UHGV virus genome: UHGV-0118082 | Direction: 5' to 3' (one strand) | Origin: a virus | DNA: 23,476 nt | Part shown: positions 1 through 19,388 of the stretch, one piece after another | Numbering within the stretch: the first letter of the stretch is position 1 | How the letters are laid out: the number at the start of each line of letters is the position of its first letter | Notes under the pieces: model-generated | Database searches by the model: none | What the model was told of the DNA's origin: nothing | Seen by the model: only the letters and a program-made list of their open reading frames with translations | Translations under genes and position numbers: made by a program

Positions 1-179
1 GAGTGATCCACCTTTACTATCGAATATCACAAAGACTTGCGGGCCAGTGCAAGGCGTTGTGTGTCTCAGTTTTGTCTAATTTAGTTAAGTAAGTTGTCGA
101 TCTATCGATACATGAATGATAGTCTCCTCAACATCAATTGTTTTGCAAAAAAACAATTAAATGAAAACAGGTAAGTTAC

Positions 180-1187
180 ATGAAAAAAATACTATCAGTT
201 TCCTTCTTTCTCATTGCCTACAGCGTGTATATTAAAATAGCTAATGCAGATGATTTAAAGGAAAAACAATATGTTACTGTAAACATGCCGGACGAAATCG
301 TGAGAGTTCAATATGTATACACTCCAAATGAAGATAGAGTAATTGAACTTTCGCGTGTTGGACTTAATAAACTTTTTTCTTTTTCCAAATTATACAAAAT
401 TTATTCAGTACAAGATGCTATCTATCAAAGTGGAAAAATGAATAATCTTTCAACAGTTCAAGTATTCGACACCGATATAATCGGCCCAATTATGGTTAGC
501 GCAGAAAATAATGAAAATGGGGATGATCCAATAGCTGCGTTTACAGGTGGATGGCATGGTTTTAACCGTGACCAGAGCGGGTCACCTACAGCCAGGCATA
601 TTTCTCTTCAGGTATGGGTTGATGGGAAGATCGTCAAAAATACCTTTAAGGGGTATGCAAATGATTTAGTGATCGAAACCACGTCTAACATCCAAGGGTT
701 TAATACCAAAAAGAAAGATGGCTCAGGTAGAGAGATTATTCAACAGAAAGTAAAAATGACCTTCAATGAAGGACGTGCAGATGTACAGATCAAAATGATT
801 CCTCTTGAAAAGGTGAGGATACACACCTACTACGGACTACAAACAGCACTTTCCCAACTGTATGCCAACAGTTCAATTCGTTATGAATCAGGTGACTCTC
901 CAGAATGGAAAGACACCTCCAGCGGACCAAATGATAGTGGACCTAAGGGTAAATATCCAAATGTTGACAGCATGATAGTCAGAAACAAAAGTAATGATGT
1001 GATAGTTGCCTGGCTTGATACTAAAAATGGGCTAGGTGAAAGATTAAACGTCAGTGATACGTATCCTGCTGCTTTTTTTGTTGGATACAAGAGCTACTTC
1101 AATTTAGTAAACGGAATTCCATTGACGATATCACCCGGACAGACTGCAGAAGTCAGTGGAGGGTTTGAATGGGTCAAGGGGATATGA
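180..1187 (+). CDS. Hypothetical secreted protein (Sec-type signal peptide); accessory gene upstream of gtrA
   Basis: ATG at 180; 335-aa ORF; N-terminus MKKILSVSFFLIAYSVYIKIANA is a typical signal peptide; AT-rich like the gtr operon; no recognisable catalytic motif. Confidence 0.6.
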   Translation: MKKILSVSFFLIAYSVYIKIANADDLKEKQYVTVNMPDEIVRVQYVYTPNEDRVIELSRVGLNKLFSFSKLYKIYSVQDAIYQSGKMNNLSTVQVFDTDIIGPIMVSAENNENGDDPIAAFTGGWHGFNRDQSGSPTARHISLQVWVDGKIVKNTFKGYANDLVIETTSNIQGFNTKKKDGSGREIIQQKVKMTFNEGRADVQIKMIPLEKVRIHTYYGLQTALSQLYANSSIRYESGDSPEWKDTSSGPNDSGPKGKYPNVDSMIVRNKSNDVIVAWLDTKNGLGERLNVSDTYPAAFFVGYKSYFNLVNGIPLTISPGQTAEVSGGFEWVKGI

Positions 1188-1402
1188 ATTAACGTAGGCA
1201 TATTTTCTCACATTGCATCCCTTCCATATGATGAAGCCTTTGCCAAGACACTCACAAAGTTCCTTTACAGTACTGTTATGGCTAACAAAGCACTATAACT
1301 CAACCTGTGTGATTTAGAATGCTTCCTTTGTTAAGCAAACTATCGATCGATGAAGCCTTGGATGATAGACTTCGTATCTTTCAGAACTCATTGATTAGAT
1401 AA

Positions 1403-1765
1403 ATGTTTAAGCTATTTGCAAAGTACACCTCGATAGGTGTGTTGAATACGCTAATACACTGGGTAGTTTTTGGTGTATGTATCTATGTTGCGCATACCAA
1501 TCAGACTATTGCTAACTTCGCAGGTTTCGTCGTTGCAGTGAGTTTCAGCTTCTTCGCGAATGCCAGATTCACCTTCAAAGCCGCCACAACAACGAAACGT
1601 TACATGCTCTATGTAGGATTCATGGGAATGTTGAGTGCGGCAGTAGGTTGGGCTGCTGACAAATGCTCACTTCCTCCTATTATCACGCTCATTACCTTTT
1701 CCGCCATCAGTCTGGTGTGCGGTTTCGTCTATTCAAAATTCATTGTATTTAGGAATGTGAAATGA
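1403..1765 (+). CDS. gtrA: GtrA-family flippase for bactoprenol-linked glucose
   Basis: 120-aa small hydrophobic protein; ATGA overlap with the downstream GT-2 glycosyltransferase; size and position match phage gtrA. Confidence 0.85.
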
Positions 1766-2688
1766 AAATATCTCTGGTCGTTCCTGTCTTCAATGAAGAA
1801 GATGCGATACCTATTTTCTATAAGACGGTACGTGAATTCGAAAAGTTGAAGCCATATGACGTCGAAATTGTATTCATAAATGACGGAAGTAAAGATTCTA
1901 CAGAATCTATTATCAATGCGCTTGGGGAGTCAGATCCACTAGTTAAGCCATTGTCCTTCACCCGTAATTTTGGCAAAGAGCCTGCGTTGTTTGCTGGGCT
2001 TGATCATGCAACTGGTGAAGCGATAATTCCAATAGACGTTGATTTACAGGACCCGATTGAAGTTATCCCTCACCTAATTGAGAAATGGCAGGCCGGGGCG
2101 GATATGGTATTAGCTAAGAGATCTGACCGCTCAACAGATGGTAGACTTAAACGAAAAACCGCCGAGTGGTTCTATAAGTTACATAATAAAATCAGCAACC
2201 CAAAGATTGAAGAGAACGTTGGAGATTTCCGCCTGATGTCGCGTGAGGTTGTTGAAAACATCAAGCTTTTACCTGAACGAAATCTTTTTATGAAGGGTAT
2301 CCTAAGCTGGGTTGGCGGTCGTACTGATGTGGTTGAGTATGCCCGCGCCGAACGTGTAGCCGGTAGTACTAAATTTAATGGCTGGAAGCTATGGAATCTC
2401 GCACTTGAGGGGATCACCAGCTTCTCCACCTTCCCGCTTCGCATCTGGACGTATATTGGCTTGTTTGTGGCGAGCGTAGCATTTATCTATGGCACATGGA
2501 TGATTATAGACACTATAGCTTTCGGTAATGCCGTTCGCGGGTACCCTTCTATTTTGGTATCTATACTATTTTTAGGTGGAATTCAATTGATTGGTATCGG
2601 AGTTCTAGGTGAATATATCGGAAGAATATATATAGAGACAAAAAAACGTCCTAAGTTTATTTTAAAGGGTTCAAAAAATGAGCATTGA
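1762..2688 (+). CDS. gtrB: GtrB bactoprenol glucosyltransferase (GT-2 family)
   Basis: 308 aa; GT-2 motifs visible in translation ([23 protein letters not shown]); hydrophobic C-terminal segment; overlaps start of next gene. Confidence 0.9.
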
Positions 2689-4306
2689 TTTTAATAAATA
2701 TAAATTAGCACTTTCGCTATTAATTATTTATTTTTTAACTTTTGTTATAAATTCTCTCGTCCCGCTAATATCTGATGATTTTAGCTATATGCGCATTGGT
2801 ATTGACTTATCAAGTCGTTATCATCACTATATGACATGGAGCGGAAGAATCGAGGCTGACATAATAAGCTCGGCAATACTTCAATTTAATTCAGTAATAG
2901 TAAAATCATTAATAAATGCAGCCCCATTGGTTGCTTTATGCTTTTTTGTGCATAAAATAATATCATTATATTCTGAATCAGACCCTTTAATCACGCCTCT
3001 GATTACATTTTCATGTTATTTTTTATTTAACCCCAATCTTGGGCAGACAACATTCTGGATTGTTGGGTCTGCAAACTATCTTTGGACTACTACCTTTTGC
3101 ATTGTTTTTACATATTCAATATGTCTACTGACAACATTAGATCGCATTACTAAAACAAAGGAAATATTTATATATTTATCGGCACTTTTAGCTGGGTGTT
3201 CTAGTGAGGCAAGTGCTGCATTAATGGTGTCAGCATCAGCGCTAGCAATTTTAAACAACATATATATCAGCAATAAAAATAAGCGAATTGCTATTATTGC
3301 CTTTGTATTTTGCTTGGCTGGGTTTATTGTTTTAATATTTGCCCCGGGGAATAAGGTAAGACTAGCTAGTGATGTTTTCAGCACGTGGAGAGGAATGGGT
3401 ATATTTGAAAAGGTAGAATACCATTTTTATGAGCGAGTCCCTAGCCTCATACGTTACATAAAATTTGAGTTTGCAATTGCTGCTGTATGTGTTATTTCAT
3501 ACATCGGTTATAATAAATTTAAATTTAGCACATCAGTATTCTGCTTATATGTAGCACCTATAATAGGTTTTTCTTTCATACTTGTTATTCTGGCATTTTC
3601 CCCATATACTCCAGAGCGTTCAGTTAATATACTTACTGTGATCCTTGCTATCCCTATATGTGCCTTAGTTAATAAACTAACAAAGCATGTCAAAATAGCA
3701 ATTACATTTTCCTTTGTTATTGTTATGCTTATAAACTGGACTCATGTTTATTCATCATATTCGAGAGTTTATATTCAGGACATTATGAGAAGATCCTACA
3801 TGCAGGATATGATTGAAAAAGGAGTTGATGACATAACAATTCCACAATATAACTTCTCAAACTTTTTCAAAGAACTTGATTTATGGGATTTATTTAACAA
3901 TGAATATGAGATAGCAAGATATTTTGGAGCCAAGAAAATTAACGTAATCCCGGTAAATATTGACTATTCCTATTTATTGACACAGCCTAACTACACTTGC
4001 AAAATAATTGATGAAAAATCAGTTGAAAAGATATACTCAATTAATTTTTATGAGGATTCTTTTAATGATGTACTGCTAATTGGAGAGACAACAAGTAGCA
4101 CTGGAACGATAGGTGAATTAACTAAAGTTAATTTTTCTGTTGTTACTGATGTTAGAAAATACCAATATGAATTGCCTTCAAATAACGTGTCTCTATTTGG
4201 ACGCAATCTCCTTGTTGTGAGAACCCCAGCGATTAATATTGACAAAGCAAAAGAGGTGTCATTCTTAATAAATGGGATGAATTGTGTATCGACAATTGAT
4301 AGATAA
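2678..4306 (+). CDS. GtrC-type serotype-specific O-antigen glucosyltransferase (polytopic membrane protein), assigned by operon position
   Basis: 542-aa ORF immediately after gtrB, highly hydrophobic N-terminal two-thirds, AT-rich; third position of a gtr operon. Confidence 0.7.
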
Positions 4307-4316
4307 TTAATAAAAA

Positions 4317-4337
4317 CAGCCCTGTCAATCAGGGCTG
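4317..4337. terminator. Bidirectional intrinsic terminator between convergent gtrC and tailspike remnant
   Basis: Hairpin CAGCCCTG-tcaat-CAGGGCTG flanked by AAAAA upstream and AAAATTATTT downstream. Confidence 0.7.
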
Positions 4338-4341
4338 AAAA

Positions 4342-6516
4342 TTATTTAATTCTAAAGTATGTTGATCCTGTGCTTAGGAATTCATATATCCCCTGTGATT
4401 CTATTGTTGTAATTAGCACTGGTCCATTATAAATACCTATGGTCTGACCATTAAAATTTACTGATGAAAGATCTAGCAAAACCCTGTTCCTAAGAAGCGT
4501 TCCATTTAATATAGTTAACTCTGGAAGCATCAGTGTTTTACCAGGAGATAAAGTACCTCCAAATTTTATTATATTCCTAGAATCATCAGGCCATGGTGAA
4601 GCCGAATTAATATCCGGTATTATTAGAATCTTACCTGAGTCACGATAGTCTGATGTTGAATAGAATGTTCCTTTACCTGAAGTATGTTCGTTATCATAAA
4701 TGCCAGCAGGGGCATTTGTGAGAACAGGTTGATTAAATCTAGTGCCTGCGAATCTTGCAATATAAGGTGCAGAAGTAGACATCGTTAGTGTTGGTTGTCC
4801 ATTGCCATTAAAACCAACTGCGTTATCTCCAATACTTGATCTTGAAAATTCATTTACATCAAAGAAACCAATATCAGTGAATCCACCTTCGCTCACTGAT
4901 TCATGGCTGTTTCCGGTAAATGAAAAGTTAGTAAAACGAGACGAGCATTTAAATGCCGGACCTGATTCTGTAGTGTGGTGCCTACCAAACTTAACACCGG
5001 TGAATGTAATGTTATCACCATTTACACAATCCATAACATTGCTGATGTACCCAGAACCTGAGTTCCACCCAATAGAACCGCCTACCCATGAAAAACCATC
5101 AAACTCCAGAATGTCAAATATCTTGCCGCCTGTAAAAGCATAGTGAGTGCAGTTTGAGAACATACATGACTTCATTCTGCGACCGCGGAAACCATACTTA
5201 GTTCCGAACAGATGGATATTAACAAACTGTCCACCTTCTATTCCTTGAATGCTTCCACCACTCAAATCAGTACCACCTACAAATTCTTTGGTCCCATCGA
5301 CTATGATGTCATTCCACAGCCCATAATGCCCCAGACCAGATCCTTCTCCGCCGCCATTCCCATCTTTGAAAGAGAAAGTTCGATATGTTTGCAGAACCCA
5401 TAAGTTGCTTATAGTAGGGTTCTCTATGACATCCAAACTGATGCATGTTGCTGTGCGCGGGTAGGTGTCATCTGGTAACTGATGCGCTCTTGATGTAAAT
5501 CTGACAACTTTTGTGATGTTAGATATCTCTGATGAAGGGGTTCCATTGCACCCAGTAACTCCGGTTAATGTACAACTCCCATCAGAGTTATTAACAAGTC
5601 CTGTAGCAAAGAACGCCCCGGAGTTAGTACTGAATTGACAGAAGTTACTTACCGGAACACCTGCGGTGTTGTTGTCAGTCAAAGGCCATGTAATTATATT
5701 TCCACCATTAGCCTGAAATGGATTTGATGCGAGTGTAATGGTATTGGATGTTTTGCTTATCACATCTGTGTTTTCTGACCCTACATATTGTGATATCACC
5801 AAGCGGTCTAATGAATAGCAAACATTACCAAACACAATCCCCCTTGAGTTAAGTCCAACCCTTATCTCTGGGGCATTCCCCAGGGAGTTTATTACACCTT
5901 CACCTCTTATTCCTATGGATACAGGTATTCCATCAATGGCAAATGGTATTGCAACCTCTGTGATTATGTTTATTTTTGAGTTCGCTGTAACAATCAGCTC
6001 TCCGTAGCCAATACGCACTAACGAGTAAATAGCAAGTTTAATTGCTGGTGAATCATTTGTGATGCCAGGTTCCTCAATGAAATTTTTAACTTCATTGATT
6101 CGGTAACCGTTTAGAAGCCCAACGCAAGCCCATTTAGTTGTTTCTACATTTGGAGTTTCACTTGATGAGATGGTGTGCGGTAACTCTCCTGTCCATACAT
6201 ACCATAATCCATCAGTGTAAAGATAAGCATCATTCTTTGATGATATAGTTACACCAGAAGAGAAATCTCCCTTTTTGACAAAAATTGATTGCTTGTAGTC
6301 ACTATAAATAGTTCCTCCATATGAGGAACCAATAAGCTTATCTCCACCAGAAGATGCTAATCTATGCTCAAATTGATCAGGGTCATACTTAAGTACATTC
6401 GGGAAATAGAACTGCTGCGAACCATACGCATCATATACAGCCATAGAATGGCCCTGCACAGTTACGAACTTGGCAATCTGTCCGTTATATACCGGATAGC
6501 CGACTTGGCTAATGTT
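4342..6516 (-). pseudogene. Tailspike gene remnant lacking the N-terminal head-binding domain (beta-helix receptor-binding/enzymatic part retained)
   Basis: Minus-strand frame open from the TAA at 6517-6519 to the stop at 4342. Translation ...[29 protein letters not shown]...VLKYDPDQ matches the end of the P22 gp9 head-binding domain ([28 protein letters not shown]...VLKYDPDQ) as I recall it. No ATG; first possible start is GTG at 6459; the upstream ~80-100 codons of a normal tailspike are absent. Confidence 0.75.
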
Positions 6517-6896
6517 TTATTAGCTGTTTTAGCTAATGTTAAGCTGTCCTGGCTAATCCACTGAGAAACCACCTTGTTCACTCCGATTTTCACGCCATCA
6601 GCAATGAGGAATTTACGCTCGATAAGCTGGCGCTTGGCAGCGCAAACATGAGTGTGATGAATACCTGTCATGGCTGCTATCTGCGTGTTTGTGAGTCGAT
6701 CCATCGGCTTATTGAATCCGTATGTCTTGCGCATGATAGCGAGCATCACCTTCAACTGCCGGACGGTTAAATCAGCCATCAGCAGACTGTCGGTAATCTC
6801 GTTAGCAACGCGCATGAAACCATCTTCGGTATCTGCCACGCGATGCTCCACGACCTCCAGTTGAGGCCTGTAATCAGCTAACTTAACGACGCCCAT
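6462..6896 (-). pseudogene. Replication initiator O-like gene, N-terminal DNA-binding domain only, truncated at its internal iterons
   Basis: 144-aa ORF; ADLTVRQLKVMLAIMRKTYGFNKPMDRLT resembles the lambda O N-terminal domain (ADLTKRQFKVLLAILRKTYGWNKPMDRIT). Last ~25 codons are read from the iteron region and junction, then stop; no C-terminal P-interaction domain. Confidence 0.75.
6496..6557 (-). repeat. Origin-type iterons inside the O-like gene (ori-lambda-like position)
   Basis: On the coding strand three ~19-bp units with dyad symmetry: ATTAGCCAGGACAGCT, ATTAGCTAAAACAGCTAAT, ATTAGCCAAGTCGGCT. Same position relative to the O N-terminal domain as the lambda ori iterons. Confidence 0.55.
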
Positions 6897-7044
6897 GTTT
6901 CACTCCTGCTTTGGCTAGTCTGTAAACACCAACAAGGCGCTCTGCGAACGCCCTGTTATTTGCTGCGGCTACCACTAATCCCTCAGGTGAATCAGGGTGT
7001 CGAATCTCTTCTTTTTCCTGGTATTTCTTACGACGTTTTGTCAT
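6889..7044 (-). CDS. Small hypothetical protein (51 aa) between cII and the O-like gene
   Basis: ATG at 7044 preceded by CAGGAGT Shine-Dalgarno; MTKRRKKYQEKEEIRHPDSPEG...; below the 60-aa track cutoff; stop overlaps the O-like start region. Confidence 0.4.
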
Positions 7045-7076
7045 AATTACTCCTGTGGATTGATCCAGTAATTCCC

Positions 7077-7373
7077 TCAGAATTGCATATCAATTTGCTT
7101 AAAATCCTCGGTGGCGGCCGGGGATTTTTTCTTTGTGATTCCATCCAATGCATACTTAAAAGCCCTGCTAATCGGACTGATGTCTGATGCCATTCCGAAA
7201 GCACACAAGACCGAAGCAATAAATCTCCAGTCCGTTCTGCTTATCTTCGATTCATGACAGCCAATCATCTTTGCCAGACCGCGCTGGGTAAGCGTTGACA
7301 GGTTGATGAGTAAATCAGTTTCAGCGCGATCAATTTCTCGCTGTGTTGGCTTGCTATAACTTGCTTGTGTCAT
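7077..7373 (-). CDS. cII: CII-like transcriptional activator
   Basis: 98 aa; HTH region LAKMIGCHESKISR and C-terminus KKKSPAATEDFKQIDMQF parallel lambda CII (KSQISR ... KKRPAATERSEQIQMEF); directly downstream of cro. Confidence 0.85.
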   Translation of the reverse strand: MTQASYSKPTQREIDRAETDLLINLSTLTQRGLAKMIGCHESKISRTDWRFIASVLCAFGMASDISPISRAFKYALDGITKKKSPAATEDFKQIDMQF

Positions 7374-7457
7374 TTGTTAATTTTCCAATAGTGAATAGTT
7401 AGTTGAAAGGTATGCGTGGAAACGCATATGGCCTTAGTTGGTCAGATATCTTGGGGC

Positions 7458-7472
7458 TCGCTTTGTCAGCGA
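7458..7472 (-). promoter_or_regulatory. nutR boxB-like hairpin (P22 type)
   Basis: Minus-strand TCGCT-GACAA-AGCGA stem-loop between cro and cII; same pentaloop as the nutL hairpin at 9634-9648. Confidence 0.5.
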
Positions 7473-7510
7473 CGTAGGACGAATGTCCATTGTGAAAAGA
7501 GCGGTGTTAC

Positions 7511-7711
7511 TTATGCAGTTGTTTTTTTGTTACTTGGGAAGGGCTTTATTTCTTCCGCATAAACGCTTCCATCAGCGTTTATAGTTAAAAAAATCTTTCG
7601 GCCTGCATGAATGGCCTTGTTAATCGCGCTTTGATATACGCCGAGATCTTTAGCCGTCTTGGTTTGCCCAAAGCGTATTGCATAATCTTTCAGGGTTATG
7701 CGTTGTTCCAT
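7511..7711 (-). CDS. cro: Cro repressor
   Basis: 66 aa [66 protein letters not shown], essentially the lambda Cro sequence as I recall it; AGGAGG Shine-Dalgarno upstream. Confidence 0.95.
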
Positions 7712-7737
7712 ACAACCTCCTTAGTACAGGCAACCAT

Positions 7738-7801
7738 TATCACCGCTAGAGGTAAAATAGTCAACACGCACGGTGTTAGAAGTTTATCCCTTGCGGTGAT
7801 A
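7738..7801. promoter_or_regulatory. Right operator OR1-OR2-OR3 with divergent PR and PRM promoters
   Basis: Three 17-bp operators at 7738-7754 (OR1), 7762-7778 (OR2), 7785-7801 (OR3); PR -35 TTGACT and -10 GATAAT on minus strand; cI starts at 7812 with almost no leader. Confidence 0.85.
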
Positions 7802-7808
7802 GATTTAA

Positions 7809-8525
<717 letters not shown>

Positions 8526-8556: not shown

Positions 8557-8898
8557 ATGACACAATTTCAACTTGCATTAATCGCTAGAGAAGTTGATGG
8601 AGAAGTCATCCATCTTCGCACCAAAGACGGATACATCAATGCCACCGCGATGTGCAAGTCTGCGGGGAAGCTACTTGCTGACTATACACGACTAAAAACA
8701 ACACAAGATTTTTTTGATGAATTATCACGCGATATGGGGATTCCCATATCGGAGTTAATTCAATCATTTAAAGGCGGAAGAGCAGAGAATCAAGGGACTT
8801 GGGTTCATCCAGACATCGCAATTAATTTAGCTCAGTGGCTATCTCCAAAATTTGCAGTGCAAGTATCGAGATGGGTGCGTGAGTGGATGTCAGGTTAA
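8557..8898 (+). CDS. KilA-N/APSES-fold DNA-binding domain protein occupying the rexA position
   Basis: 113 aa; RTKDGYINATAMCKSAGK ... FKGGRAENQGTWVHPDIAINLAQWLSPKF parallels the APSES/KilA-N signature (DxYVNAT..LKAA.. / QGGxGKYQGTWVP...A..LA); AGGA Shine-Dalgarno upstream of the ATG. Confidence 0.7.
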   Translation: MTQFQLALIAREVDGEVIHLRTKDGYINATAMCKSAGKLLADYTRLKTTQDFFDELSRDMGIPISELIQSFKGGRAENQGTWVHPDIAINLAQWLSPKFAVQVSRWVREWMSG

Positions 8899-8937
8899 AG
8901 AGCGCCTGCCGAACTCCCTATCCACCTTAAGCGGTAT

Positions 8938-9316
8938 ATGACAAACCGAGGCAGAGTTCCTCATACGCACTTTTCTATGCTTAATGAACTGACGTTTAAC
9001 TTGGTTGCGCCACTTGAACAGGCCGGATATACGCTGCCAGAAAAAATGGTCCCTGATATTTCAGAGGGTAGGGTTTTCTCGCAATGGCTCCGTGACAACC
9101 GGGGGGTTGAGCCGAAGACATTCCCAACATATAACCATGAGTACCCAGATGGCCGGACATTCCCGGTACGTCTATACCCAAACGAATATTGCAGATTTCA
9201 AACAATACTTCAACGAAGTGTGGCTGCCTCAGTACGCTCCTAAATATTTTGCTGAACGAGACCAAAGGGCATTGACGTTGATTGAGAAAATCATGCTACC
9301 TGACCTTGATTCCTAA
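8938..9316 (+). pseudogene. Hypothetical gene split by a +1 frame change (two protein-like ORF halves in different frames)
   Basis: Frame of 8938 reads protein-like to ...RTFPVRLYPNEY then degenerates. Frame of 9005 is junk-like at first but protein-like from ...IADFKQYFNEVWLPQYAPKYFAERDQRALTLIEKIMLPDLDS; switch point near 9175-9195. Confidence 0.45.
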
Positions 9317-9648: not shown

Positions 9649-9776
9649 AATAACCAAAGTGAACTTTGGGGTGAATGCAGAAGCTAACCTTCTCGGCGGA
9701 GGCGCTTTGCAATGATTACGCTACCGGAGTTAGTCGCCCGGCTGTATTCACCGCCAAAGTTCACCAGGAGGTCTAT

Positions 9777-10160
9777 ATGACACGCAGAACTCAGTTCAAA
9801 GGCAATTCACGTTCTCGTCGTCGTGAGCGTTTAAAGGCAAAGGCATTAGCTAACGGCGTACTGGCCCGCGAAGAAGCAATAAGTTCAGAAGTATTACACC
9901 GCCCTACTCTAAGCAGAGCGCAGATTCAGGCTAAAGGTACTCACGAAACGCCTGAGCGCATAGAAGACGCTAAGCCAATTAAGTTCATGGCACAGGACGT
10001 GATCTGGCAACAGAAAGAATACAGACGCAATCTGGAGAGAGCGGCCATTGTGTACGCGAATGAGTTTGGACATAAGCAACCAGAAACTGGTGTATGTCTT
10101 CCAAATGTAGCTCTTTACGCAGCAGGATACCGGAAATCAAAACAACTGACGGCGAGATGA
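9777..10160 (+). CDS. N-like transcription antiterminator (arginine-rich motif; P22 gp24/phage 21 N type)
   Basis: ATG at 9777 with AGGAGG Shine-Dalgarno; N-terminus MTRRTQFKGNSRSRRRERLKAKA is an arginine-rich RNA-binding motif; C-terminus LPNVALYAAGYRKSKQLTAR resembles P22 gp24. The track start at 9675 would include nutL and is rejected. Confidence 0.7.
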   Translation: MTRRTQFKGNSRSRRRERLKAKALANGVLAREEAISSEVLHRPTLSRAQIQAKGTHETPERIEDAKPIKFMAQDVIWQQKEYRRNLERAAIVYANEFGHKQPETGVCLPNVALYAAGYRKSKQLTAR

Positions 10161-10220
10161 CTTGTGTTGGTCGCCAGAAAATGAAATTAGGCAGCAAACC
10201 ACTTATTTGAGAGCTGATAC

Positions 10221-10463
10221 ATGAGAGTAAAAACTATGGGCGCAAGCCCATTAAGCGGTCGTATTTTTCAAGGAACATTAAACACTGAAAAAGGAATGTG
10301 GGTAGGAAAGAGAGAAGATGTCACCGATCAGGCAGTTAGGGCAGTAGCCGAACACATGATGATAAAAGACCAGAAATATGCATACGAAACGAAGGATGGC
10401 AAATGGCTGATAATAAGTCATCAACTGGTTGATAAATTACCAGAAGAGTTTGTTGATGGTTAA
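10221..10463 (+). CDS. Hypothetical early-left protein
   Basis: 80-aa ORF downstream of N on the same strand; no recognisable motif. Confidence 0.45.
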   Translation: MRVKTMGASPLSGRIFQGTLNTEKGMWVGKREDVTDQAVRAVAEHMMIKDQKYAYETKDGKWLIISHQLVDKLPEEFVDG

Positions 10464-10591
10464 ATTTGCTTTGGAATAAGCAACAGAATAAACACTGCAC
10501 TGTGTATTCATTCCAACGAGTGAATACACGGAGCAATGTCGCTCGTAACTAAACAGGAGCCGACTTGTTCTGATTATTGGAAATCTTCTTT

Positions 10592-10619
10592 GCCCTCCAA
10601 TGTGAGGGCAATTTTTTTT
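10592..10619 (+). terminator. Intrinsic terminator in early-left operon (tL1-like)
   Basis: GCCCTC-caatgt-GAGGGC hairpin followed by a T8 run. Confidence 0.65.
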
Positions 10620-10632
10620 GACGGAGTAAACG

Positions 10633-10881
10633 ATGATAAAAACTGATTATCCTGCAGAACTTAAACAAAAAGTAATAACAGCAATTAAATGCTCTTTTAT
10701 CTCATGTCGTACAGATGAAGAACGACATGTCGTTGAGTGTGCAATTGTCGAGTTTCTCACAGCGATGGAATTTACCGCAGCAGAATCAATAGACGTATTA
10801 AAGCAATCAGACGGAAATGATATTGAAACAGATGATGTTATTGACCGGCTAATAAAATCATTCGAAGAAGAAATAGAGTAG
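10633..10881 (+). CDS. Hypothetical early-left protein (acidic)
   Basis: 82-aa ORF with GGAG-type Shine-Dalgarno; no recognisable motif. Confidence 0.5.
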   Translation: MIKTDYPAELKQKVITAIKCSFISCRTDEERHVVECAIVEFLTAMEFTAAESIDVLKQSDGNDIETDDVIDRLIKSFEEEIE

Positions 10882-10964
10882 CCGCCTGAGCGCGGCTTTA
10901 CCGCATACCAATAACGCTTCACTTGAGGCGTTTTCGTTATGCAATCAAATATAAGGAGTTACCC

Positions 10965-11099
10965 ATGATGCACTTTCAGCTCGCGGGTAGCGGCGTCATG
11001 TCCGCTTTCTACCCGCACGAATCTGAATTATCACGCCGAGTTAAACAATTAATCAGAGCAGCAAAGAAACAACTGGAGGCGTTATGCGCAATGAAATAG
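10965..11099 (+). CDS. Small hypothetical protein (44 aa)
   Basis: AAGGAG Shine-Dalgarno 7 nt upstream of ATG; below track cutoff; overlaps start of next small ORF. Confidence 0.3.
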   Translation: MMHFQLAGSGVMSAFYPHESELSRRVKQLIRAAKKQLEALCAMK

Positions 11100-11236
11100 C
11101 CATCAATCACCAGATGCTTCGTGCAGCACAGAACAAAGCAGTAATAGCCAGATTTATTGGTGATTCAAAAATGTGGCTTGAAGCAAATAAAGCGATGAAA
11201 TCAGCTATCAACCTTCCGTGGTATCGCAGGAAATGA
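11084..11236 (+). CDS. Small hypothetical protein (50 aa)
   Basis: ATG at 11084; chained start/stop overlaps with flanking small ORFs, typical of phage early operons. Confidence 0.3.
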   Translation: MRNEIAINHQMLRAAQNKAVIARFIGDSKMWLEANKAMKSAINLPWYRRK

Positions 11237-11343
11237 GTTTTACAGATAACTGGTCAGACGAAGAATTTATTCGTCAGATGAAAGAAATGCTCAATCAGCA
11301 CAAAGAACAGGAGAAAGATGATGATTCTGACTCTGAAAGATGA
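11233..11343 (+). CDS. Small hypothetical acidic protein (36 aa)
   Basis: ATGA overlap with preceding ORF; very short, weak evidence. Confidence 0.25.
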   Translation: MSFTDNWSDEEFIRQMKEMLNQHKEQEKDDDSDSER

Positions 11344-11629
11344 GCGTGAAATATCGCAAATAATCGCAAGTTTTACTGATGAAGATTACGAACGAATCAA
11401 CAGTGAAGTTGATCGCCTCTGCAAACGTTGCGACCCAATAAGCGAAATGCTTCGCTCATATAAACCAGATGAACACACTAAGGACGCTATCGACTGGCTG
11501 GAAGATTATGACTGTAACTATCAGGAAAAAGCCGCTGAATGGTTCTGGGATGCAATAACCGAAAGAGTTAAGGCTGAATATGCCTTCGCAATATTCAAAC
11601 GCAGACACATTTTTGGAGAAGCAGCATGA
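11318..11629 (+). CDS. Hypothetical early-left protein
   Basis: 103-aa ORF, AGGAG Shine-Dalgarno upstream; ATGA overlap with the recombinase gene downstream. Confidence 0.5.
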   Translation: MMILTLKDEREISQIIASFTDEDYERINSEVDRLCKRCDPISEMLRSYKPDEHTKDAIDWLEDYDCNYQEKAAEWFWDAITERVKAEYAFAIFKRRHIFGEAA

Positions 11630-12537
11630 GCAATATCGTTGAATTCGTTAAACAGCAAGAGCAGTTATTCTGCGGAGCATTGACTGAACAGACGGTGACA
11701 TGGGCTAAGGAAAGCCAGTTTGCAATTCAGTATTTCCAGAAAAATGATTACCTGGCTAAAACAGCACTGGCAAATCCAACCAGCGCACAGAACGCCATCA
11801 TCAATGTTGCGGCGATCGGTATCACCTTAAACCCGGCTAGCAAACTGGCTTATCTGGTTCCGCGCGACGGCATGGTGTGCCTTGATATCAGTTATATGGG
11901 ATTGCTCCATATTGCAATGGAGTCTGGTGTTATCTCATGGGGTCAGGCAAAACTTGTTCATGCTAACGATACCTATGAGTCAAACGGGCTTGATAAAGCA
12001 CCAACCCATAAATACAACGCCTTCGGTGATCGTGGTGATATTGTTGGCGTTTACTGCACAGTTAAGACGCCAGCAGGTGATTATCTAACGGAAGAGATGA
12101 GTCTGGCTGAAATTGAGGCTGTAAGGAAAACAAGCAAGGCAGCATTCAGCGATAAAGGACCATGGGTAAATCACTGGAATGAGATGGCGCGAAAGACGGT
12201 CGTAAAGCGTGCAAGCAAGTATTGGCCTAAGGCATCACGTCTTGATAGTGCTATTCACGTACTAAACGAAGAAGAAGGTGTGTGGACTGAACCAGTTATG
12301 CCGCACAAATCAGAGGAAGATATCCGCGAAGATGAACGGAAACGACAGCAGGAAATTATGGAAAAAGCACAACTTCTTTGTGATGAAATGGCTCAGGCTG
12401 AAAACATGGATGATTTGAAGCGATATTTTGCAGAAGCATATCGCCTGACATCTGGAATGAAATTGCAGCAGAACGTACAAGCCATTTACATAGAATGCAA
12501 AGCGAAACTGGAGGTTGCCAGTGAGCAAACTGTATGA
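11626..12537 (+). CDS. RecT/Bet-family single-strand annealing recombinase
   Basis: 303 aa; GPWVNHWNEMARKTVVKRASKYWP parallels Rac RecT GPWVTHWEEMAKKTAIRRLFKYLP as recalled; early-left position of lambdoid recombination genes. Confidence 0.85.
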   Translation: MSNIVEFVKQQEQLFCGALTEQTVTWAKESQFAIQYFQKNDYLAKTALANPTSAQNAIINVAAIGITLNPASKLAYLVPRDGMVCLDISYMGLLHIAMESGVISWGQAKLVHANDTYESNGLDKAPTHKYNAFGDRGDIVGVYCTVKTPAGDYLTEEMSLAEIEAVRKTSKAAFSDKGPWVNHWNEMARKTVVKRASKYWPKASRLDSAIHVLNEEEGVWTEPVMPHKSEEDIREDERKRQQEIMEKAQLLCDEMAQAENMDDLKRYFAEAYRLTSGMKLQQNVQAIYIECKAKLEVASEQTV

Positions 12538-13003
12538 AATTGCCAATGAATACGCAAAATTGATGGATTCAGATTTAGAACCAGAGATGATTGCTGACAC
12601 AATAGAAGGCATGGAAGGAGAATTTACCGATAAAATAGAGCAACTTCTTTCCGTCATTAAAAATGAATCTGGTTATGCTGAACGCCTCAAGGAAGAGGCA
12701 AAGTCACTGAATGAGCGAGCCGCAGTAATTCAAAATAAGATTGACAGCATCAAATCATATATAGCGTCATCGCTTGAAATGGTTGGCAAGAAAAATATTC
12801 GAGCAGGTATTCACCAGGTAACAATCCGCAAACCGTCAGAAATTGTAGAAATAATCGACTCAAGCGCCCTTCCTCCTGAATACGTTGAGTTTGAAACGAC
12901 AATTAAAGCCGACAAACTGGCAATCAAACACCAACTAAAAGCAGGAATAAATATCCCCGGTGCTCAACTCAAAGTTGGGAAACCTTCACTTCTTATCAAA
13001 TAA
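12521..13003 (+). CDS. Gp157-like protein commonly paired with RecT-type recombinases (function unknown)
   Basis: GTG at 12521 preceded by GGAGG (track start 12515 is TTG); ~160 aa, charged helical N-terminal half; immediately follows recT with overlap. Confidence 0.5.
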   Translation: MSKLYEIANEYAKLMDSDLEPEMIADTIEGMEGEFTDKIEQLLSVIKNESGYAERLKEEAKSLNERAAVIQNKIDSIKSYIASSLEMVGKKNIRAGIHQVTIRKPSEIVEIIDSSALPPEYVEFETTIKADKLAIKHQLKAGINIPGAQLKVGKPSLLIK

Positions 13004-13014
13004 CGGTATCGCCT

Positions 13015-13329
13015 ATGAAAAAGACTCCATGGGAGAAATGGGAAGTCGATTTCTTGCGCGAAGTAGCGGCGACAATGCCAGTTGAAGTTATTGCTGAAAA
13101 ACTGGAAAGGACTGAAAAATCAGTTATGGCGAAAGCAACAAGGATTGGCGCTGACATTGTTAGCCGACTTCGTGGAAGACGCTGGACAAGAGCTGAAGTA
13201 TCACTTTTCGGTAAGTTCTCCGCAGAAGAAATAGCAATTGCAACCTGCCGCTCAATTTATTCAGTAAGAGCTATGCGATACAAGCTAAAAAAACTTGATG
13301 AAGAAAGAGCAGGCATACGAATAAATTAA
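13015..13329 (+). CDS. Hypothetical protein with two tandem W-x-E/R-containing helical repeats (possible DNA-binding)
   Basis: 104 aa; internal repeat [13 protein letters not shown]... and [13 protein letters not shown]... Confidence 0.45.
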
Positions 13330-13345
13330 CAAAGAGGAATTTACC

Positions 13346-13510
13346 ATGAGAGGACTTGCATACAATCCCGGCATTCTTCCGGCAGAAATGATTATTCGCC
13401 AACGCGTAAAGCCAATGCCATCGAGAGAGGAATTGCTTAAGAGAAATTCTTTTCCATCAGTGAATCAAAACAAATATCTGAATGCGATGTGGCGGAGTGG
13501 AAAAAAATGA
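13346..13510 (+). CDS. Small hypothetical protein (54 aa)
   Basis: AGAGGA Shine-Dalgarno, ATG at 13346; stop overlaps the ATG at 13507 (ATGA). Confidence 0.3.
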
Positions 13511-14091
13511 AACAAATGACACTAATTGAGATGGATGGTTTTCTGAAAGGCAAATGCATCCCAAGTGATTTAAATGTTAACGAAACAAACGCTGAATATC
13601 TTGTCCGTAAGTTCGGTGAACTTGAATCAAAACTAGAAACGGCGTTGCGGGAGTGTCGTTCTGCTGGAATCACGATTGATAACCTTGAGGCCAAGTGCGC
13701 GGCGCTGGCTGTGGAGAATGCGTGGCTGAATAAATTTATCGTACAGAGTTGCTACGTGTTTGACGGCGAGCAGGGTGAACTATCTGATGCGTATATCTGC
13801 GCAATAGACGGAAGGATGCCGCAAACCCAAGTCACCGACGCTTTTTTGGATGAAGTGAAGACTGAAGCACGCAAGGAGGGAGCTTACTTTGTGGCGAACA
13901 GAATGCTGGCTGCCTGGGAAGCTGGTTTTATTGATGATACTGCGAAGAACGCCGCGGATATTGCCAGGATGATTATTACCTCTACTGAGTTTATGGCTAA
14001 TGCGCCGGAAGGCGATTTTGACCGCTCATTCTCTGATGGCGTTCTCGAAGATATCGCCGCCCAGCTTCGCAAAGGATGTGATCAAAAATGA
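13507..14091 (+). CDS. Hypothetical early-left protein
   Basis: Track ORF begins at GTG 13489; first in-frame ATG at 13507 overlaps upstream stop; 194 aa; no recognisable motif. Confidence 0.5.
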
Positions 14092-14705
14092 CAATCACAA
14101 AACAACGAGTAGAAGAAATCATATCGCGCATTGAAATGTATGGGCATGGTGCAGGGTATACCGTTGACGAGGTTTATGACCTTGCTGTACTGGCGTTGAA
14201 TTTATCAAATATCGCAAACCTTAAGCGATACGAGCTTGATATGGATGGTTGCGACTCGTTCGGTCAGGATTGTGGCGCTGACATGACTGAAGATCCTGAT
14301 GGCGATTATGTCCTGTTTGATGACGTGGTTAAGTTGTTTGAGTTTGATACAACCACCAAGAAGTTAGAAACCCCAGCCACCGACGCTTTCCTTGCTGAAG
14401 TACTGGCGCAGGTGGTGAAATCGCCATCCAATGCCGTTCAGTCAGTAATTGCAGAGCGTCAACGCCATCAATCAGCTGAGGGATGGACGCCTGAGCATGA
14501 TGACCAGTACAGCAAATCGCAGTTACTGTGGGCATCCTCATGCTACGTACTGAATGCCATCCATCCATTTAACCGCATTCCATTTGACTGGCCGTGGACA
14601 CCAGAATGGTGGAAGCGGACAAATCCACGCCGTGACCTGGTGAAAGCTGGCGCACTTATTCTGGCCGAAATTGAACGCATAGACCGCCAGGAGTCCGCCC
14701 AATGA
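14088..14705 (+). CDS. Hypothetical early-left protein
   Basis: 205 aa, ATGA-coupled to flanking genes. Confidence 0.5.
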   Translation: MTITKQRVEEIISRIEMYGHGAGYTVDEVYDLAVLALNLSNIANLKRYELDMDGCDSFGQDCGADMTEDPDGDYVLFDDVVKLFEFDTTTKKLETPATDAFLAEVLAQVVKSPSNAVQSVIAERQRHQSAEGWTPEHDDQYSKSQLLWASSCYVLNAIHPFNRIPFDWPWTPEWWKRTNPRRDLVKAGALILAEIERIDRQESAQ

Positions 14706-15208
14706 GCAACATCAACAAACAGGCGCTGCGTGAAGCGGCGGAGAAAGCAACGTGTGGTGTGTGGTCGCTCGAATATGGAGAGGAGAGATTTGATGCTGGT
14801 GATGCGCTAATTCATCGTGAAGTTGTTGGATATCTTCCCATTTGCAGAATTGAAGGAGCGCATCCAGAAAGCGGTTTCGATGAAGATTTCCAAATGGAAC
14901 AGCAGGCCAATGCTGAATTCATCACCGCAGCCAATCCGGCTACCGTCTTGGCGCTGCTGGATGAGCTGGAGAAGATGCAGGCGCAATCGTCCAAATGGTG
15001 CGAAGCCTTCCATAAAGCCGTTTCCGTTGGCGCTCGGTATGAGGAGCGGATTGCTGAACTGGAAGCACGGGAAATATCGCTCCCAGAACGTAGCAGTATG
15101 CTTCATCGAACAGATTTTCACGAGGATTACCAAACGGTAATGGCATACAAAGTTTCTGAAGTCATCGCTGCAATCCGCGCCGCAGGCATTCGCATCAAAG
15201 GAGAGTGA
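14702..15208 (+). CDS. Hypothetical early-left protein (loosely reminiscent of Ead/Ea22-like prophage proteins)
   Basis: 168 aa, ATGA-coupled; last gene before an intrinsic terminator. Confidence 0.5.
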   Translation: MSNINKQALREAAEKATCGVWSLEYGEERFDAGDALIHREVVGYLPICRIEGAHPESGFDEDFQMEQQANAEFITAANPATVLALLDELEKMQAQSSKWCEAFHKAVSVGARYEERIAELEAREISLPERSSMLHRTDFHEDYQTVMAYKVSEVIAAIRAAGIRIKGE

Positions 15209-15288
15209 TATGAGCACTGGATGATATGGGCGCAGATAGCGCATGCAGACGTAACCAATATTCGAATTGAAGAACTGAAAGAACACCA

Positions 15289-15313
15289 AGCCGCCTGATG
15301 GCGGTTTTTTATT
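15289..15313 (+). terminator. Intrinsic terminator after the early-left gene block
   Basis: CCGCC-tgat-GGCGG hairpin followed by TTTTTTATT. Confidence 0.7.
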
Positions 15314-15355
15314 GCCTGATTTGCAGGTTCGATTCCCTATTCGGAGATAGCACTC

Positions 15356-15556
15356 ATGCAACACGAACTACAACCTGATTCACTGGTTGATTTGAAATTC
15401 ATCATGGCTGATACTGGCTTTGGTAAAACCTTCATCTATGACCGGATTAAGTCCGGCGACCTGCCAAAAGCCAAAGTTATCCACGGGCGAGCAAGATGGT
15501 TATATCGTGACCATTGTGAATTCAAAAATAAGCTCTTAAGCCGCGCCAATGGGTAA
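15356..15556 (+). CDS. AlpA/Xis-like small HTH protein (excisionase or regulator) upstream of integrase
   Basis: 66 aa; LKFIMADTGFGKTFIYDRIKSGDLPKAKVIHGRARWLYRDHCEF fits the AlpA/excisionase HTH pattern; GGAGA Shine-Dalgarno. Confidence 0.7.
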   Translation: MQHELQPDSLVDLKFIMADTGFGKTFIYDRIKSGDLPKAKVIHGRARWLYRDHCEFKNKLLSRANG

Positions 15557-15828
15557 AATAGCGGGTAAAATATTTTTCACATCTAAAAAACACCATTCCA
15601 ATCAATCCCCTGCCGCCTCAAGTAGATGTCTGCAGGGGACAATACCTTTTCATTTCATCACGTTTCAACACACTTCACCTCCCCCCTTAAAACCAGCAAA
15701 ATCAGGGCCTGTCGCCTTGAACATGGTTTCAGTTGATTTCATGACATTACATGATTCTGATGGTATCGTTGATGGTACTCACGGTTCGATAAACCGATAC
15801 CATCAACTGACAACAAAGATTACTCTCC
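15557..15828 (+). promoter_or_regulatory. Integrase leader with direct and inverted repeats; candidate Int arm-type sites/att region
   Basis: GGGTAAAATA direct repeat (15551-15560, 15563-15572); inverted repeat GATGGTATCG / CGATACCATC (15759-15768, 15795-15804) plus an extra GATGGTAC copy; hairpin CCCCTGC...GCAGGGG at ~15607-15638. The track ORF 15549-15842 is considered non-coding. Confidence 0.3.
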
Positions 15829-17100: not shown

Positions 17101-17174
17101 AAATAAGAAAATGGCTAATAGTAGTAAAGTCTGCTATTCGCCCCATTTTACCATATGTGCATACAGGTGACGTG

Positions 17175-18149: not shown

Positions 18150-18220
18150 GTGGTAATATTTTATACCATCATAAAAACAAAATAGTGGCACTGATAATTT
18201 AGCCCTAACCTTGCCATCAT

Positions 18221-18248
18221 CTGCCGTGTTCATTACATAACACGGCAG
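18221..18248 (+). promoter_or_regulatory. Perfect 10-bp inverted repeat immediately upstream of alpA, overlapping its ribosome-binding region
   Basis: CTGCCGTGTT-cattacat-AACACGGCAG; right arm ends 8 nt before the alpA ATG; loop carries the CATTACA motif repeated at 18702-18747. Confidence 0.45.
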
Positions 18249-18256
18249 GTAATTTC

Positions 18257-18466
18257 ATGACATTAAAAACTTACCCTATCACCGGGCATGCCCGCCCACG
18301 GGCTACTGCTGACTTTTTGCAAGTAAGCACAGTTACTCTCTGGCGCTGGGAAAAAAACAATCCTGAATTTCCAAAATCCACACGTATTTCAAAACGGGTA
18401 ACTGTTTACGATGCACAAGAAATTAGACAGTGGGTAAAAGCTCAATCCTCAGATGCTGATAAATAA
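18257..18466 (+). CDS. alpA: AlpA-family transcriptional regulator (P4 Vis-like)
   Basis: 69 aa; FLQVSTVTLWRWEKNNPEFPKSTRISKRVTVYDAQEIRQWV fits the AlpA HTH pattern. Confidence 0.8.
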   Translation: MTLKTYPITGHARPRATADFLQVSTVTLWRWEKNNPEFPKSTRISKRVTVYDAQEIRQWVKAQSSDADK

Positions 18467-18517
18467 TATGACGACCTTAGAAAAATGGGAAAGAAGAAAA
18501 TCTTCCCCATGTATTTA

Positions 18518-18747: not shown

Positions 18748-18828
18748 AAGGAATCAAAATAGCAACGCCCCGGAGTGTTTGCGGCACTGCCGAGGCGTCT
18801 GACCAAAGCGTTAGATGAGGTAACGAAA

Positions 18829-19357: not shown

Positions 19358-19388
19358 CAAAACACCGCTGAAAACGGAGTAATCCACG

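Follow-up and report, generated by a model that had tools for sequence, protein, structure and literature searches.

The stretch of DNA analysed here (the window; 23,476 nucleotides, virus genome record UHGV-0118082) is a metagenome contig of low coverage (5.3x) that carries a prophage remnant. Its chromosomal flanks, mlaA-yfdC-int on one side and dsdCXA-emrYK-evgAS on the other, are 100% identical to E. coli, and this identity places the host locus at argW of that species. A tRNA scan of the window returned none, argW being located just beyond the left end, where it is accompanied by intS; the TorI-type excisionase is found at the opposite end of the prophage. On the attL side, the core derived from the 3′ end of argW lies outside the window, 1,327 bp beyond its left end. 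The remnant spans 16,957 bp from attL to attR, and a second integrative element begins directly to the right of attR. With both attachment cores and the cognate integrase present at argW, and with both genes at the gap truncated, each matching an intact homologue up to the joint, the element is a defective prophage.

The features of the remnant are collected in Table 1. ORF335, located between intS and the gtr genes, gave no family match in searches of Pfam, PHROG, and NCBIfam; a homologue with 75% identity is present in an E2348/69 prophage. Window positions 6488–8450 are 97.9% identical to the HK97 immunity region. Of the bstA-like gene beside the repressor, positions 6–121, 164–253, and 245–301 of the phrog_6287 profile are matched by three separate ORFs. 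The original prediction had listed the immunity region, the early-left operon, and the gtr operon as retained, and for the window this list is correct.

Table 1. Features of the argW prophage remnant, in window coordinates
Feature	Position	Strand	Basis
ORF335, uncharacterised, signal-peptide-like N-terminus, between intS and gtrA	180–1187	+	position kept in CM2010 and 23AR0998
O-antigen glucosylation operon	1403–4306	+	Pfam; 100% identity to the same genes of the intact CM2010 prophage
gtrA	1403–1765	+	Pfam GtrA_DPMS_TM
gtrB	1762–2688	+	Pfam Glycos_transf_2
serotype-specific DUF6056/GtrC-type gene	2678–4306	+	Pfam DUF6056
bidirectional terminator-like hairpin between convergent gtrC-type gene and tailspike	4317–4337	.	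terminator scan
tailspike gene without codons 1–70 of 789 (tailspike′)	4342–6497	-	translation, Pfam, protein alignment with 789-aa CM2010 and 799-aa Gally tailspikes
truncated replication initiator gene O′ (144 codons)	6462–6896	-	translation, Pfam, blastn, HK97 O protein comparison
ori remains inside O	6495–6557	-	direct repeats; HK97 O gene comparison
iteron 1, complete	6557–6539	-	
iteron 2, complete	6537–6519	-	
iteron 3, cut after 17th base of 19	6513–6495	-	
crossover interval of the deletion	6497–6502	-	three-way alignments of HK97 O, CM2010 tailspike, and Gally tailspike
rest of early-right operon, now reading into O′ and tailspike	6883–7764	-	promoter scan, Pfam, HK97 identity
pR-like promoter	7764–7736	-	promoter scan
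cro	7711–7511	-	Pfam Cro
cII	7373–7077	-	Pfam Phage_CII
gp53-like ORF	7044–6883	-	
cI repressor, 237 aa, intact, HTH_3 and Peptidase_S24	7812–8525	+	Pfam
bstA-like abortive-infection gene beside cI, pseudogene in three ORF pieces	8557–9316	+	PHROG phrog_6287
early-left operon: N, cIII, kil, recT, Sipho_Gp157-family gene, ead/Ea22-like genes, torI-type excisionase	9675–15556	+	Pfam, PHROG
torI-type excisionase	15356–15556	+	Pfam, PHROG
attR core, copy of tRNA-Arg argW 3′ end (CTGCAGGGGACA)	15630–15641	+	exact match with CM2010 argW 3′ end; CM2010 attR comparison

The truncated initiator gene O′ encodes residues 1–133 of a 273-aa HK97-type O protein, followed by 11 out-of-frame codons and a TAA stop codon. 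The N-terminal iteron-binding domain is whole, with a complete Phage_rep_O domain (Pfam profile positions 1–95 of 95), and comparison of O′ with the PDB gave no match. The lambda ori is situated inside gene O and is composed of four dyad-symmetric 19-bp iterons and an A/T-rich region, bound by the N-terminal domain of O. The HK97-type O gene is alike in having four dyad-symmetric 19-bp units followed by an A/T-rich stretch, downstream of Phage_rep_O. The ori iterons that had been claimed for the remnant are real, and consist of three such units within O, of the ATTAGCC-N5-GGCTAAT type. Unlike the lambda-type ori, that of the remnant is limited to iterons 1 and 2 and the first 17 bases of the 19-bp iteron 3; the fourth iteron and the A/T-rich stretch, both present in HK97, have been deleted. 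Because the A/T-rich region, the C-terminal half of O, and P are all absent, this origin cannot fire. A terminator-like match at 6497–6511 was considered as a terminator of the pR transcript and rejected; it represents the palindrome of iteron 3 read on the plus strand, and the transcribed minus strand has no T-tract.

As for the tailspike, the ORF at 4342–6516 on the minus strand matches positions 67–113 of the 113 in the Head_binding profile, followed by Tail_spike_N (Pfam). What has been kept is the 3′ head-binding segment (approximately 6344–6497), the Tail_spike_N domain, and the receptor-binding body, while the first 70 codons were lost to the deletion. The assignment of this ORF as a P22-like tailspike is borne out by these domains and by a blastn match of 84–93% identity to Gally, HK620, CUS-3, Sf6, and Sf101 (approximately 6344–6498). 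The gene had also been described as starting at the very end of the head-binding domain; the N-terminal part is indeed gone, but the sequence starts at codon 71 of 789, and about 40% of the domain model is still encoded. The first in-frame ATG at 6444 (corresponding to Met90) opens a 700-aa ORF (4342–6444), and a GTG is present at 6459. Residues 1–29 of the 700-aa ORF align with residues 90–118 of the Sf6 tailspike and 89–114 of the P22 tailspike (PDB chains); when the tailspike was searched by sequence against the PDB and NCBIfam, only this head-binding stub gave matches. Homology is preserved on both sides of the receptor-binding domain, with about 150 bp of head-binding sequence on one side and the gtr/int region on the other.

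The two homologies meet within 6 bp. A match of 99.1% to the O genes of HK97, Nil2, and Stx2 phage spans 6488–6950 and ends there (blastn against phages), which together with the complete Phage_rep_O domain agrees with the proposed O-like nature of 6462–6896. In base-by-base three-way alignments with HK97 O and the CM2010 and Gally tailspikes, the final O-specific base on the minus strand is the T at 6503, and the first tailspike-specific base is the T at 6496; position 6499 is also of O type, but is the third position of a Gly codon that varies among tailspikes. The switch from O to tailspike had been predicted to fall within 6496–6520, and the crossover at 6497–6502, corresponding to base 17 of the third iteron, lies inside this range. 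The microhomology that was likewise foreseen amounts to 2–6 bp: TA (6498–6497) is certain, and with a GGC codon for Gly71 in the tailspike parent it could lengthen to CGGCTA. Around the joint, O and a Gally-type tailspike agree in register at 11 of 16 bases, a level reached by random in-register pairs in 4.5e-4 of 200,000 trials; by this measure the microhomology appears to exceed chance, for a stretch that was picked post hoc. The parental sequences abut directly, and alignment to both of them revealed no IS remnant, target duplication, or foreign bases at the joint. Although the original prediction spoke of a fusion of O to the tailspike, only the DNA is joined. An in-frame fusion protein is ruled out, since the reading frames differ and O′ runs 11 codons out of frame to the TAA at 6464–6462.

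The joint was not found in the sequence collections that were scanned. Megablast gave no covering record among 5,426 complete E. coli genomes or 50,697 phage records, an exact 26-mer across the joint had no match in the GTDB species representatives (a result confined to representative genomes), and the element has no NCBI accession. The arrangement foreseen as a refutation, with O and tailspike naturally adjacent in an intact phage, was seen in none of the intact phages or prophages examined. The same joint was found on at least 19–23 contigs from ten samples, assembled by two pipelines (ENA SPAdes-style contigs and Logan), by means of the identical 144-aa O′ protein that only this joint can create. 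This bears on whether the contigs of O and tailspike from two different phages were joined by the assembler through a shared k-mer. The low coverage of the window and the 11/16 in-register patch common to O and tailspike would fit such an artefact, but one of the other copies has a coverage of 39x, the exact shared stretch of 2–6 bp is far shorter than any assembly k-mer, and both flanks run into a coherent argW-to-dsd chromosomal context. Given also the recurrence in ten samples, we regard an assembly artefact as practically negligible.

The copies are mutually 99.93–100% identical, with 0–5 SNPs per copy, none of which fall in gtr, tailspike′, or O′, and no differences exist in window positions 1–7099. 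The sequences thus show the joint to be the result of a single recent event. Later lesions are superimposed on it: bstA has become a pseudogene, an IS has inserted, deletions extend into dsdC/dsdA, and attR has received a second island. In other copies, the early-left operon has been lost or interrupted. The block from cI to intS is kept in all four structural variants; because O′ served as the search query, and copies without O′ could not be found, this retention reflects ascertainment bias.

Three intact P22-like relatives allow the deletion to be sized, as had been suggested. The E. coli CM2010-0578/1 prophage (CM2010), a 40,562-bp argW prophage that is 100% identical to window positions 1–6357, has 23.6 kb between the equivalent points; the E. 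coli argW prophage of GN04171, with the same 273-aa O, has 26.6 kb, and phage HZ41 has approximately 25.9 kb, assuming that its record is a circularly permuted complete genome. The deletion size is thereby bracketed at about 24–27 kb (23.6–26.6 kb), and adding 23.6 kb to the 16,957-bp remnant gives the size of the intact CM2010 prophage. Between the two points, the relatives carry P, nin, Q, lysis, terminase, portal, capsid, ejection, and mnt/arc genes. The gene content of CM2010 and GN04171 confirms that everything between the replication and tailspike genes is missing here, i.e., P, nin, Q, holin/endolysin, terminase, portal, scaffold, coat, gp4/gp10/gp26-type proteins, ejection proteins, and arc/mnt. 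Because the P22-type virion module (portal, scaffold, coat, gp4/gp10, and ejection proteins) is gone from the remnant and present in CM2010, membership of the P22-like (Lederbergvirus-type) group applies to the ancestor and not to the remnant itself. CM2010 is rejected as the direct ancestor, as it differs in O, cI, and the early-left region, and its head-binding segment is 12% divergent over approximately 6358–6499. A direct ancestor combining precisely the early region and the head-binding segment seen here was not found among the sequences searched, and the length of the deletion and of the microhomology (2–6 bp) are therefore given as brackets. Homology, intact relatives, and independent copies all agree on a deletion junction.

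It could be argued that the gap arose in more than one step, through successive smaller deletions, an IS-mediated deletion followed by loss of the IS, or recombination between tandem prophages at argW. The locus is prone to tandem insertions, as illustrated by the second element at attR, and to IS activity, and the divergent head-binding segment comes from a lineage other than that in CM2010, which shows an earlier mosaic exchange. Against this stand the direct abutment of the parents with microhomology, the clean joint, and the fact that returning one deleted segment to the remnant gives a genome of normal size (40.6 kb) and gene order, and we find separate events highly improbable.

The joint is very probably the scar of one 24–27 kb deletion in a P22-like argW prophage of E. 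coli, which left an ordinary defective prophage with passenger fragments. What the sequences themselves show is the joint with its two parents, the size of the deletion, its single origin, and the lesions that came later. The ancestor would have been a temperate phage of the Lederbergvirus type with an HK97-type immunity and replication module, integrated at the tRNA-Arg gene argW in the order argW-intS-ORF335-gtrABC-<tailspike ... late genes ... P-O-cII-cro-cI-early left-torI-attR-dsdC. We infer that one illegitimate, microhomology-assisted recombination joined base 400 of O, in the third iteron, to codon 71/72 of the tailspike gene. Such an event would have removed the C-terminal half of O, iteron 4, the A/T-rich region, P, nin, Q, the lysis genes, terminase, portal, scaffold, coat, tail and ejection genes, and mnt/arc, to yield a 17-kb defective prophage unable to replicate, to lyse the cell, or to build particles. 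Still aboard are the repressor gene, the integrase with its excisionase, the early-left operon, and the gtr operon for O-antigen glucosylation. Tailspike′ and the O′ stub are best seen as passengers, each marking one edge of the deletion, and their context suggests that neither has a function. Tailspike′ now lies at the end of the repressed pR operon, and would be transcribed at most on SOS induction. The element appears to have spread clonally, and it keeps eroding.

The original prediction took the retained genes as a sign of a domesticated remnant rather than random decay, which is unsupported: there are zero substitutions in 1–7099, bstA is in three pieces, the early-left operon is lost or interrupted in other copies, and an independent remnant, in E. 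coli 23AR0998, has gtr but only a 364-aa tailspike. A domesticated element should form a coherent unit with means of expression and, if it acts outside the cell, of release; here, no lysis or export function is present, the tailspike lies behind a repressed pR, and bstA is disrupted. We nevertheless considered a cassette in which the deletion product is kept by selection, such that the head-binding-deficient tailspike, expressed from pR on SOS induction, binds or depolymerises O antigen independently of virions, and the N-terminal domain of O′ acts as a decoy for HK97/Stx-type iterons, in addition to cI immunity and gtr. Every copy has the 700-aa ORF intact, with a start just 19 residues ahead of the boundary of the classical P22 delta-N construct. 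Its ATG follows the O′ stop codon by 17 nt and an AGGG, a putative ribosome-binding sequence, by 7 nt; the terminator scan gave no terminator-like site on the minus strand between O′ and this ATG, and O′ has kept the whole Phage_rep_O domain and 2.9 iterons. Retention of the cI-to-intS block could be read in the same way, were it not for the ascertainment bias described above. But the AGGG is ordinary tailspike coding sequence, found in intact genes too, and with no substitutions in 1–7099 and 100% identity of 1–6357 to a functional-looking intact prophage there has been no time for neutral decay, so that intact ORFs are expected without selection and are uninformative about it. Likewise, 0–5 SNPs per copy make dN/dS or any other selection test impossible. 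The promoter scan gave no strong promoter of tailspike′ itself (best internal match 9/12), and intact cI represses pR. Tailspike′ has no export signal and the remnant no lysis genes, so its product would stay cytoplasmic. The true defence gene, bstA, is already dead; the 23AR0998 remnant dropped the N-terminal half of its tailspike and the whole immunity region while keeping gtr; and the element is rare, with none in the 5,426 complete genomes. We therefore judge a selected cassette to be quite unlikely.

A related proposal, which we hold to be very unlikely, is that the deletion accidentally created a new SOS-inducible operon that is now under selection. Transcription through pR-cro-cII-O′ into the 700-aa tailspike, which lacks virion attachment, would then provide a free trimeric protein able to bind or depolymerise O antigen, which would leave the cell on lysis by co-resident prophages; the O′ stub could titrate or block the origins of superinfecting HK97/Stx-type phages, and/or the remnant could donate its receptor-binding domain by recombination to incoming P22-like phages. 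There is no sign that the truncated tailspike has been maintained for any purpose. Keeping gtr, cI, and int may well bring a benefit, as demonstrated for GtrABS of K-12 CPS-53 (PMC11990801); this is a known property of such remnants, in which the joint is not involved.

Interpreted as the product of a single deletion, the element matters mostly for annotation: it should be entered as a defective prophage at argW whose O and tailspike genes are truncated, rather than as a phage, a gene fusion, or a new type of system. It also provides a clean, datable example of how a temperate phage turns into a cryptic prophage by one microhomology-assisted deletion followed by stepwise erosion. Since both parental sequences are known, and intact siblings exist at the same site, it can be used as a teaching or calibration case for studies of prophage decay.

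The element is a fresh case of a well-known kind, comparable to CPS-53/KplE1 of E. coli K-12 (argW-intS-gtrABS ... torI-dsdC). The two have in common the integration site, the att core, and an IntS-type integrase and a TorI-type excisionase at opposite ends, and both are defective, with morphogenesis, lysis, and replication genes gone and the gtr operon beside int kept. The K-12 remnant is much older and more scrambled, with tail-fibre-assembly fragments and no P22-type tailspike, whereas the remnant described here is young: its one joint is clean, the cI/cro/N immunity region is intact, and the tailspike is nearly complete. The gtrABS operon of CPS-53 is functional and blocks phages (PMC11990801). 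By analogy, the gtr operon retained here probably still alters the O antigen and phage sensitivity, which would be a property of the operon and not of the joint. This same attP for argW is common to Sf6, HK620, Kapi1, and KplE1, whose int and xis genes lie at the two extremities of the prophage (PMC8787464). In E. coli and Shigella, the intact P22-like phages and prophages of the argW site (Kapi1, HK620, Sf6, CM2010, and GN04171) agree with the remnant in gene order and site, and the O of GN04171 is 99% identical to that found here. They differ in that their O and tailspike genes are separated by 23.6–26.6 kb with the P, nin, Q, lysis, and virion genes, a segment that is absent here, with both flanking genes truncated. 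The IS1-bounded remnant of E. coli 23AR0998 derives from a related phage, in which ORF335-gtrA-gtrB-DUF6056-tailspike is about 90% identical, and in analogy to the argW remnant a large central deletion has spared gtr, early-left genes, xis, and int. It differs in its bio/ybhC (lambda att) site, in its integrase, and in the deletion itself, which is bounded by IS1 and removed the whole immunity and replication region together with the N-terminal half of the tailspike, leaving the C-terminal 364 aa.

On the minus strand of the window, O-gene sequence passes directly into tailspike sequence, as the original prediction held, and this switch, expected at 6496–6520, is confirmed. In a blastn search of 50,697 phage records, gene O of HK97, Nil2 and numerous Stx phages matches window 6488–6950 at 99.1%, the match going no further, and P22-like tailspikes match approximately 6344–6498 by blastn (Gally 93%, CUS-3 91%, HK620 90%, and Sf6 88%). 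Since base-by-base alignment gives O-type sequence down to 6503/6499 and tailspike-type sequence from 6496 onward, the crossover lies within 6497–6502. Around it, O and a Gally-type tailspike share 11 of 16 in-register bases (CGGnTAnnnGGTATA); pairs drawn at random, in register, from both parental regions reach this level in 4.5e-4 of trials, the compared stretch having been picked post hoc. Perfect microhomology at the crossover is certain for TA, and it would be CGGCTA if the true parent had GGC for Gly71.

Both flanking genes are of the predicted kinds, and both are truncated (see table). Intact HK97-type O has 273 residues, of which the window retains 1–133 with one substitution, followed by 11 wrong-frame codons and TAA at 6464–6462. 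The HK97-type gene carries a lambda-style origin with four 19-bp dyad-symmetric iterons and then an A/T-rich stretch; iteron 4 and the A/T-rich region are absent from the window. The tailspike ORF begins inside the P22-type head-binding domain, at Gly71 of what is a 789-aa protein in the closest relative, and its first in-frame ATG (6444; Met90 in Sf6 tailspike numbering, residue 89 in P22-based PDB constructs) opens a 700-aa ORF. The two frames differ, and therefore no fusion protein is formed.

Features at the joint and in the second integrative element (window coordinates)
Feature	Position	Strand	Remarks
Truncated O ORF, 144 aa	6896–6462	minus	complete Phage_rep_O domain
ori iteron 1	6557–6539	minus	kept
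ori iteron 2	6537–6519	minus	kept
ori iteron 3	6513–6495	minus	17/19 bases kept
Truncated tailspike ORF	6516–4342	minus	Pfam Head_binding positions 67–113/113, then Tail_spike_N; P22-like nucleotide matches
P4-type integrase, second element	15829–17100	plus	
350-aa gene without assigned function, second element	within 15642–23476	plus	
AlpA, second element	18257–18466	plus	
DUF5375, second element	19670–20053	plus	
Zn-ribbon/Toprim/DUF927 primase-helicase, second element	20050–22722	plus	

Because the P22 tailspike without its head-binding domain folds and cleaves O antigen, it is conceivable that the truncated tailspike yields an active 700-aa protein on SOS induction. A pR-like promoter (7764–7736) upstream of cro, cII, gp53 and the truncated O would read through this operon, there being no terminator-like site on the minus strand before the tailspike, and a bidirectional hairpin (4337–4317) follows the gene. 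An AGGG precedes the ATG by 7 nt, and the truncated-O stop precedes it by 17 nt. However, this ribosome-binding-like sequence is ordinary tailspike coding sequence, cI is intact, and there is neither an export or lysis function nor any sign of selection, so that such activity is very improbable.

Intact relatives support the proposed reading of the joint as a deletion. E. coli CM2010-0578/1 carries a 40,562-bp argW prophage that is 100% identical to window 1–6357, including ORF335, gtrA, gtrB, DUF6056 and the tailspike body. Beyond the tailspike follow arc, ejection proteins, gp4/gp10-type genes, coat, scaffold, portal, terminase, lysis genes, Q and nin, and further on a DnaB-type helicase and an O differing from that of the window. 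The points equivalent to the joint ends are 23.6 kb apart in this prophage, 26.6 kb apart in the intact P22-like argW prophage of E. coli GN04171, which has the same 273-aa O, and approximately 25.9 kb apart in phage HZ41, where both parental sequences are present, if that record is circularly permuted. O and tailspike are not neighbours in any phage record or in any of 5,426 complete E. coli genomes. Across window 6358–6499, identity to the CM2010-0578/1 prophage falls from 100% to approximately 87%, and the drop coincides exactly with the linker joining the head-binding domain to the receptor-binding body; this is a mosaic boundary of the kind that domain swapping in tailspikes typically leaves.

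In metagenome assembly ERZ1755939 the window is contig NODE_916. Further contigs that carry the joint reach mlaA-yfdC-intS to one side and dsdCXA-emrYK-evgAS to the other, and the flank is 100% identical to E. coli. This is the argW site, also used by Sf6, HK620, Kapi1 and K-12 KplE1/CPS-53, and attP of argW phages lies between int and xis, which places these genes at opposite prophage ends (PMC8787464). One copy of the argW 3′-end core lies 1,327 bp to the left of the window and another at 15630–15641, and thus the remnant measures 16,957 bp; adding 23.6 kb gives the length of the CM2010-0578/1 prophage. In the window's own strain, a second integrative element (15642–23476, plus strand) has inserted precisely into the attR copy of this core; its layout is satellite-like or island-like, and it extends past the window end.

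Only the joint can give rise to the 144-aa O protein, which occurs on at least 19–23 contigs from ten samples and two assembly pipelines, and the copies are 99.93–100% identical to the window, with zero differences in 1–7099. The element has no NCBI accession and no match in species-representative genomes. It is not an artefact and reflects a single event, and the element is rare, young and clonal. In the 3′ portion of cII, a cluster of three substitutions (7100, 7102, and 7116) separates the window from seven of the nine other copies (L004–L008, L011, and L012), the background being identical otherwise; this resembles either a small conversion patch or a variant of assembly or strain.

The original prediction further took the element for a domesticated remnant, which is not supported; ordinary decay is what the evidence indicates. 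Selection on defective prophages is reportedly widespread, an established idea attributed to Bobay, Touchon and Rocha in 2014. Here, the right arm, with the gtr operon and tailspike body, matches an intact prophage at 100%, and intact ORFs are therefore expected regardless of selection. Immediately downstream of cI, a bstA-like gene for abortive infection (8557–9316, plus strand) is split into three ORFs that match phrog_6287 at profile positions 6–121, 164–253, and 245–301, and thus represents a known prophage defence gene that has become a pseudogene. Other copies are further deleted, from window 9723 into dsdA in L004 (position 7174; L007 has the same breakpoint sequence, but ends 28 bp beyond) and from recT at 12168 into dsdC in L006 (position 4729); both L004 and L006 deletions also inactivate D-serine utilisation genes. 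In L005 (position 54) and L012 (position 27), an IS-like end, presumably IS629-like from its terminal sequence, abuts window 10245.

At the bio/ybhC (lambda att) site of E. coli 23AR0998 (NZ_CM132249.1, 3204058–3224504) lies an independent remnant, bounded by IS1 and derived from a 90%-related P22-like phage. It keeps ORF335-gtrAB-DUF6056, early-left genes, xis and int, has also lost the immunity region, and has its tailspike reduced to half, the C-terminal 364 aa. The recurrent pattern is that the lytic core is lost and gtr stays, and not that a head-binding-deficient tailspike is kept. ORF335 (180–1187, plus strand; L015 6797–7804) has a signal-peptide-like N-terminus and no match in Pfam, PHROG or NCBIfam. 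It lies between intS and gtrA here and, in two further E. coli prophages, adjoins gtrA. A 75% identical homologue in an E2348/69 prophage has as neighbours an acyltransferase and a tail protein of 895 aa with the same receptor-binding domain (92% nucleotide identity). ORF335 appears to move together with modules for O-antigen modification and tailspikes. As for gtr, its usefulness has been shown in the argW remnant CPS-53 (PMC11990801). The remnant described here is a further instance of the type of defective prophage represented by CPS-53/KplE1 in K-12.
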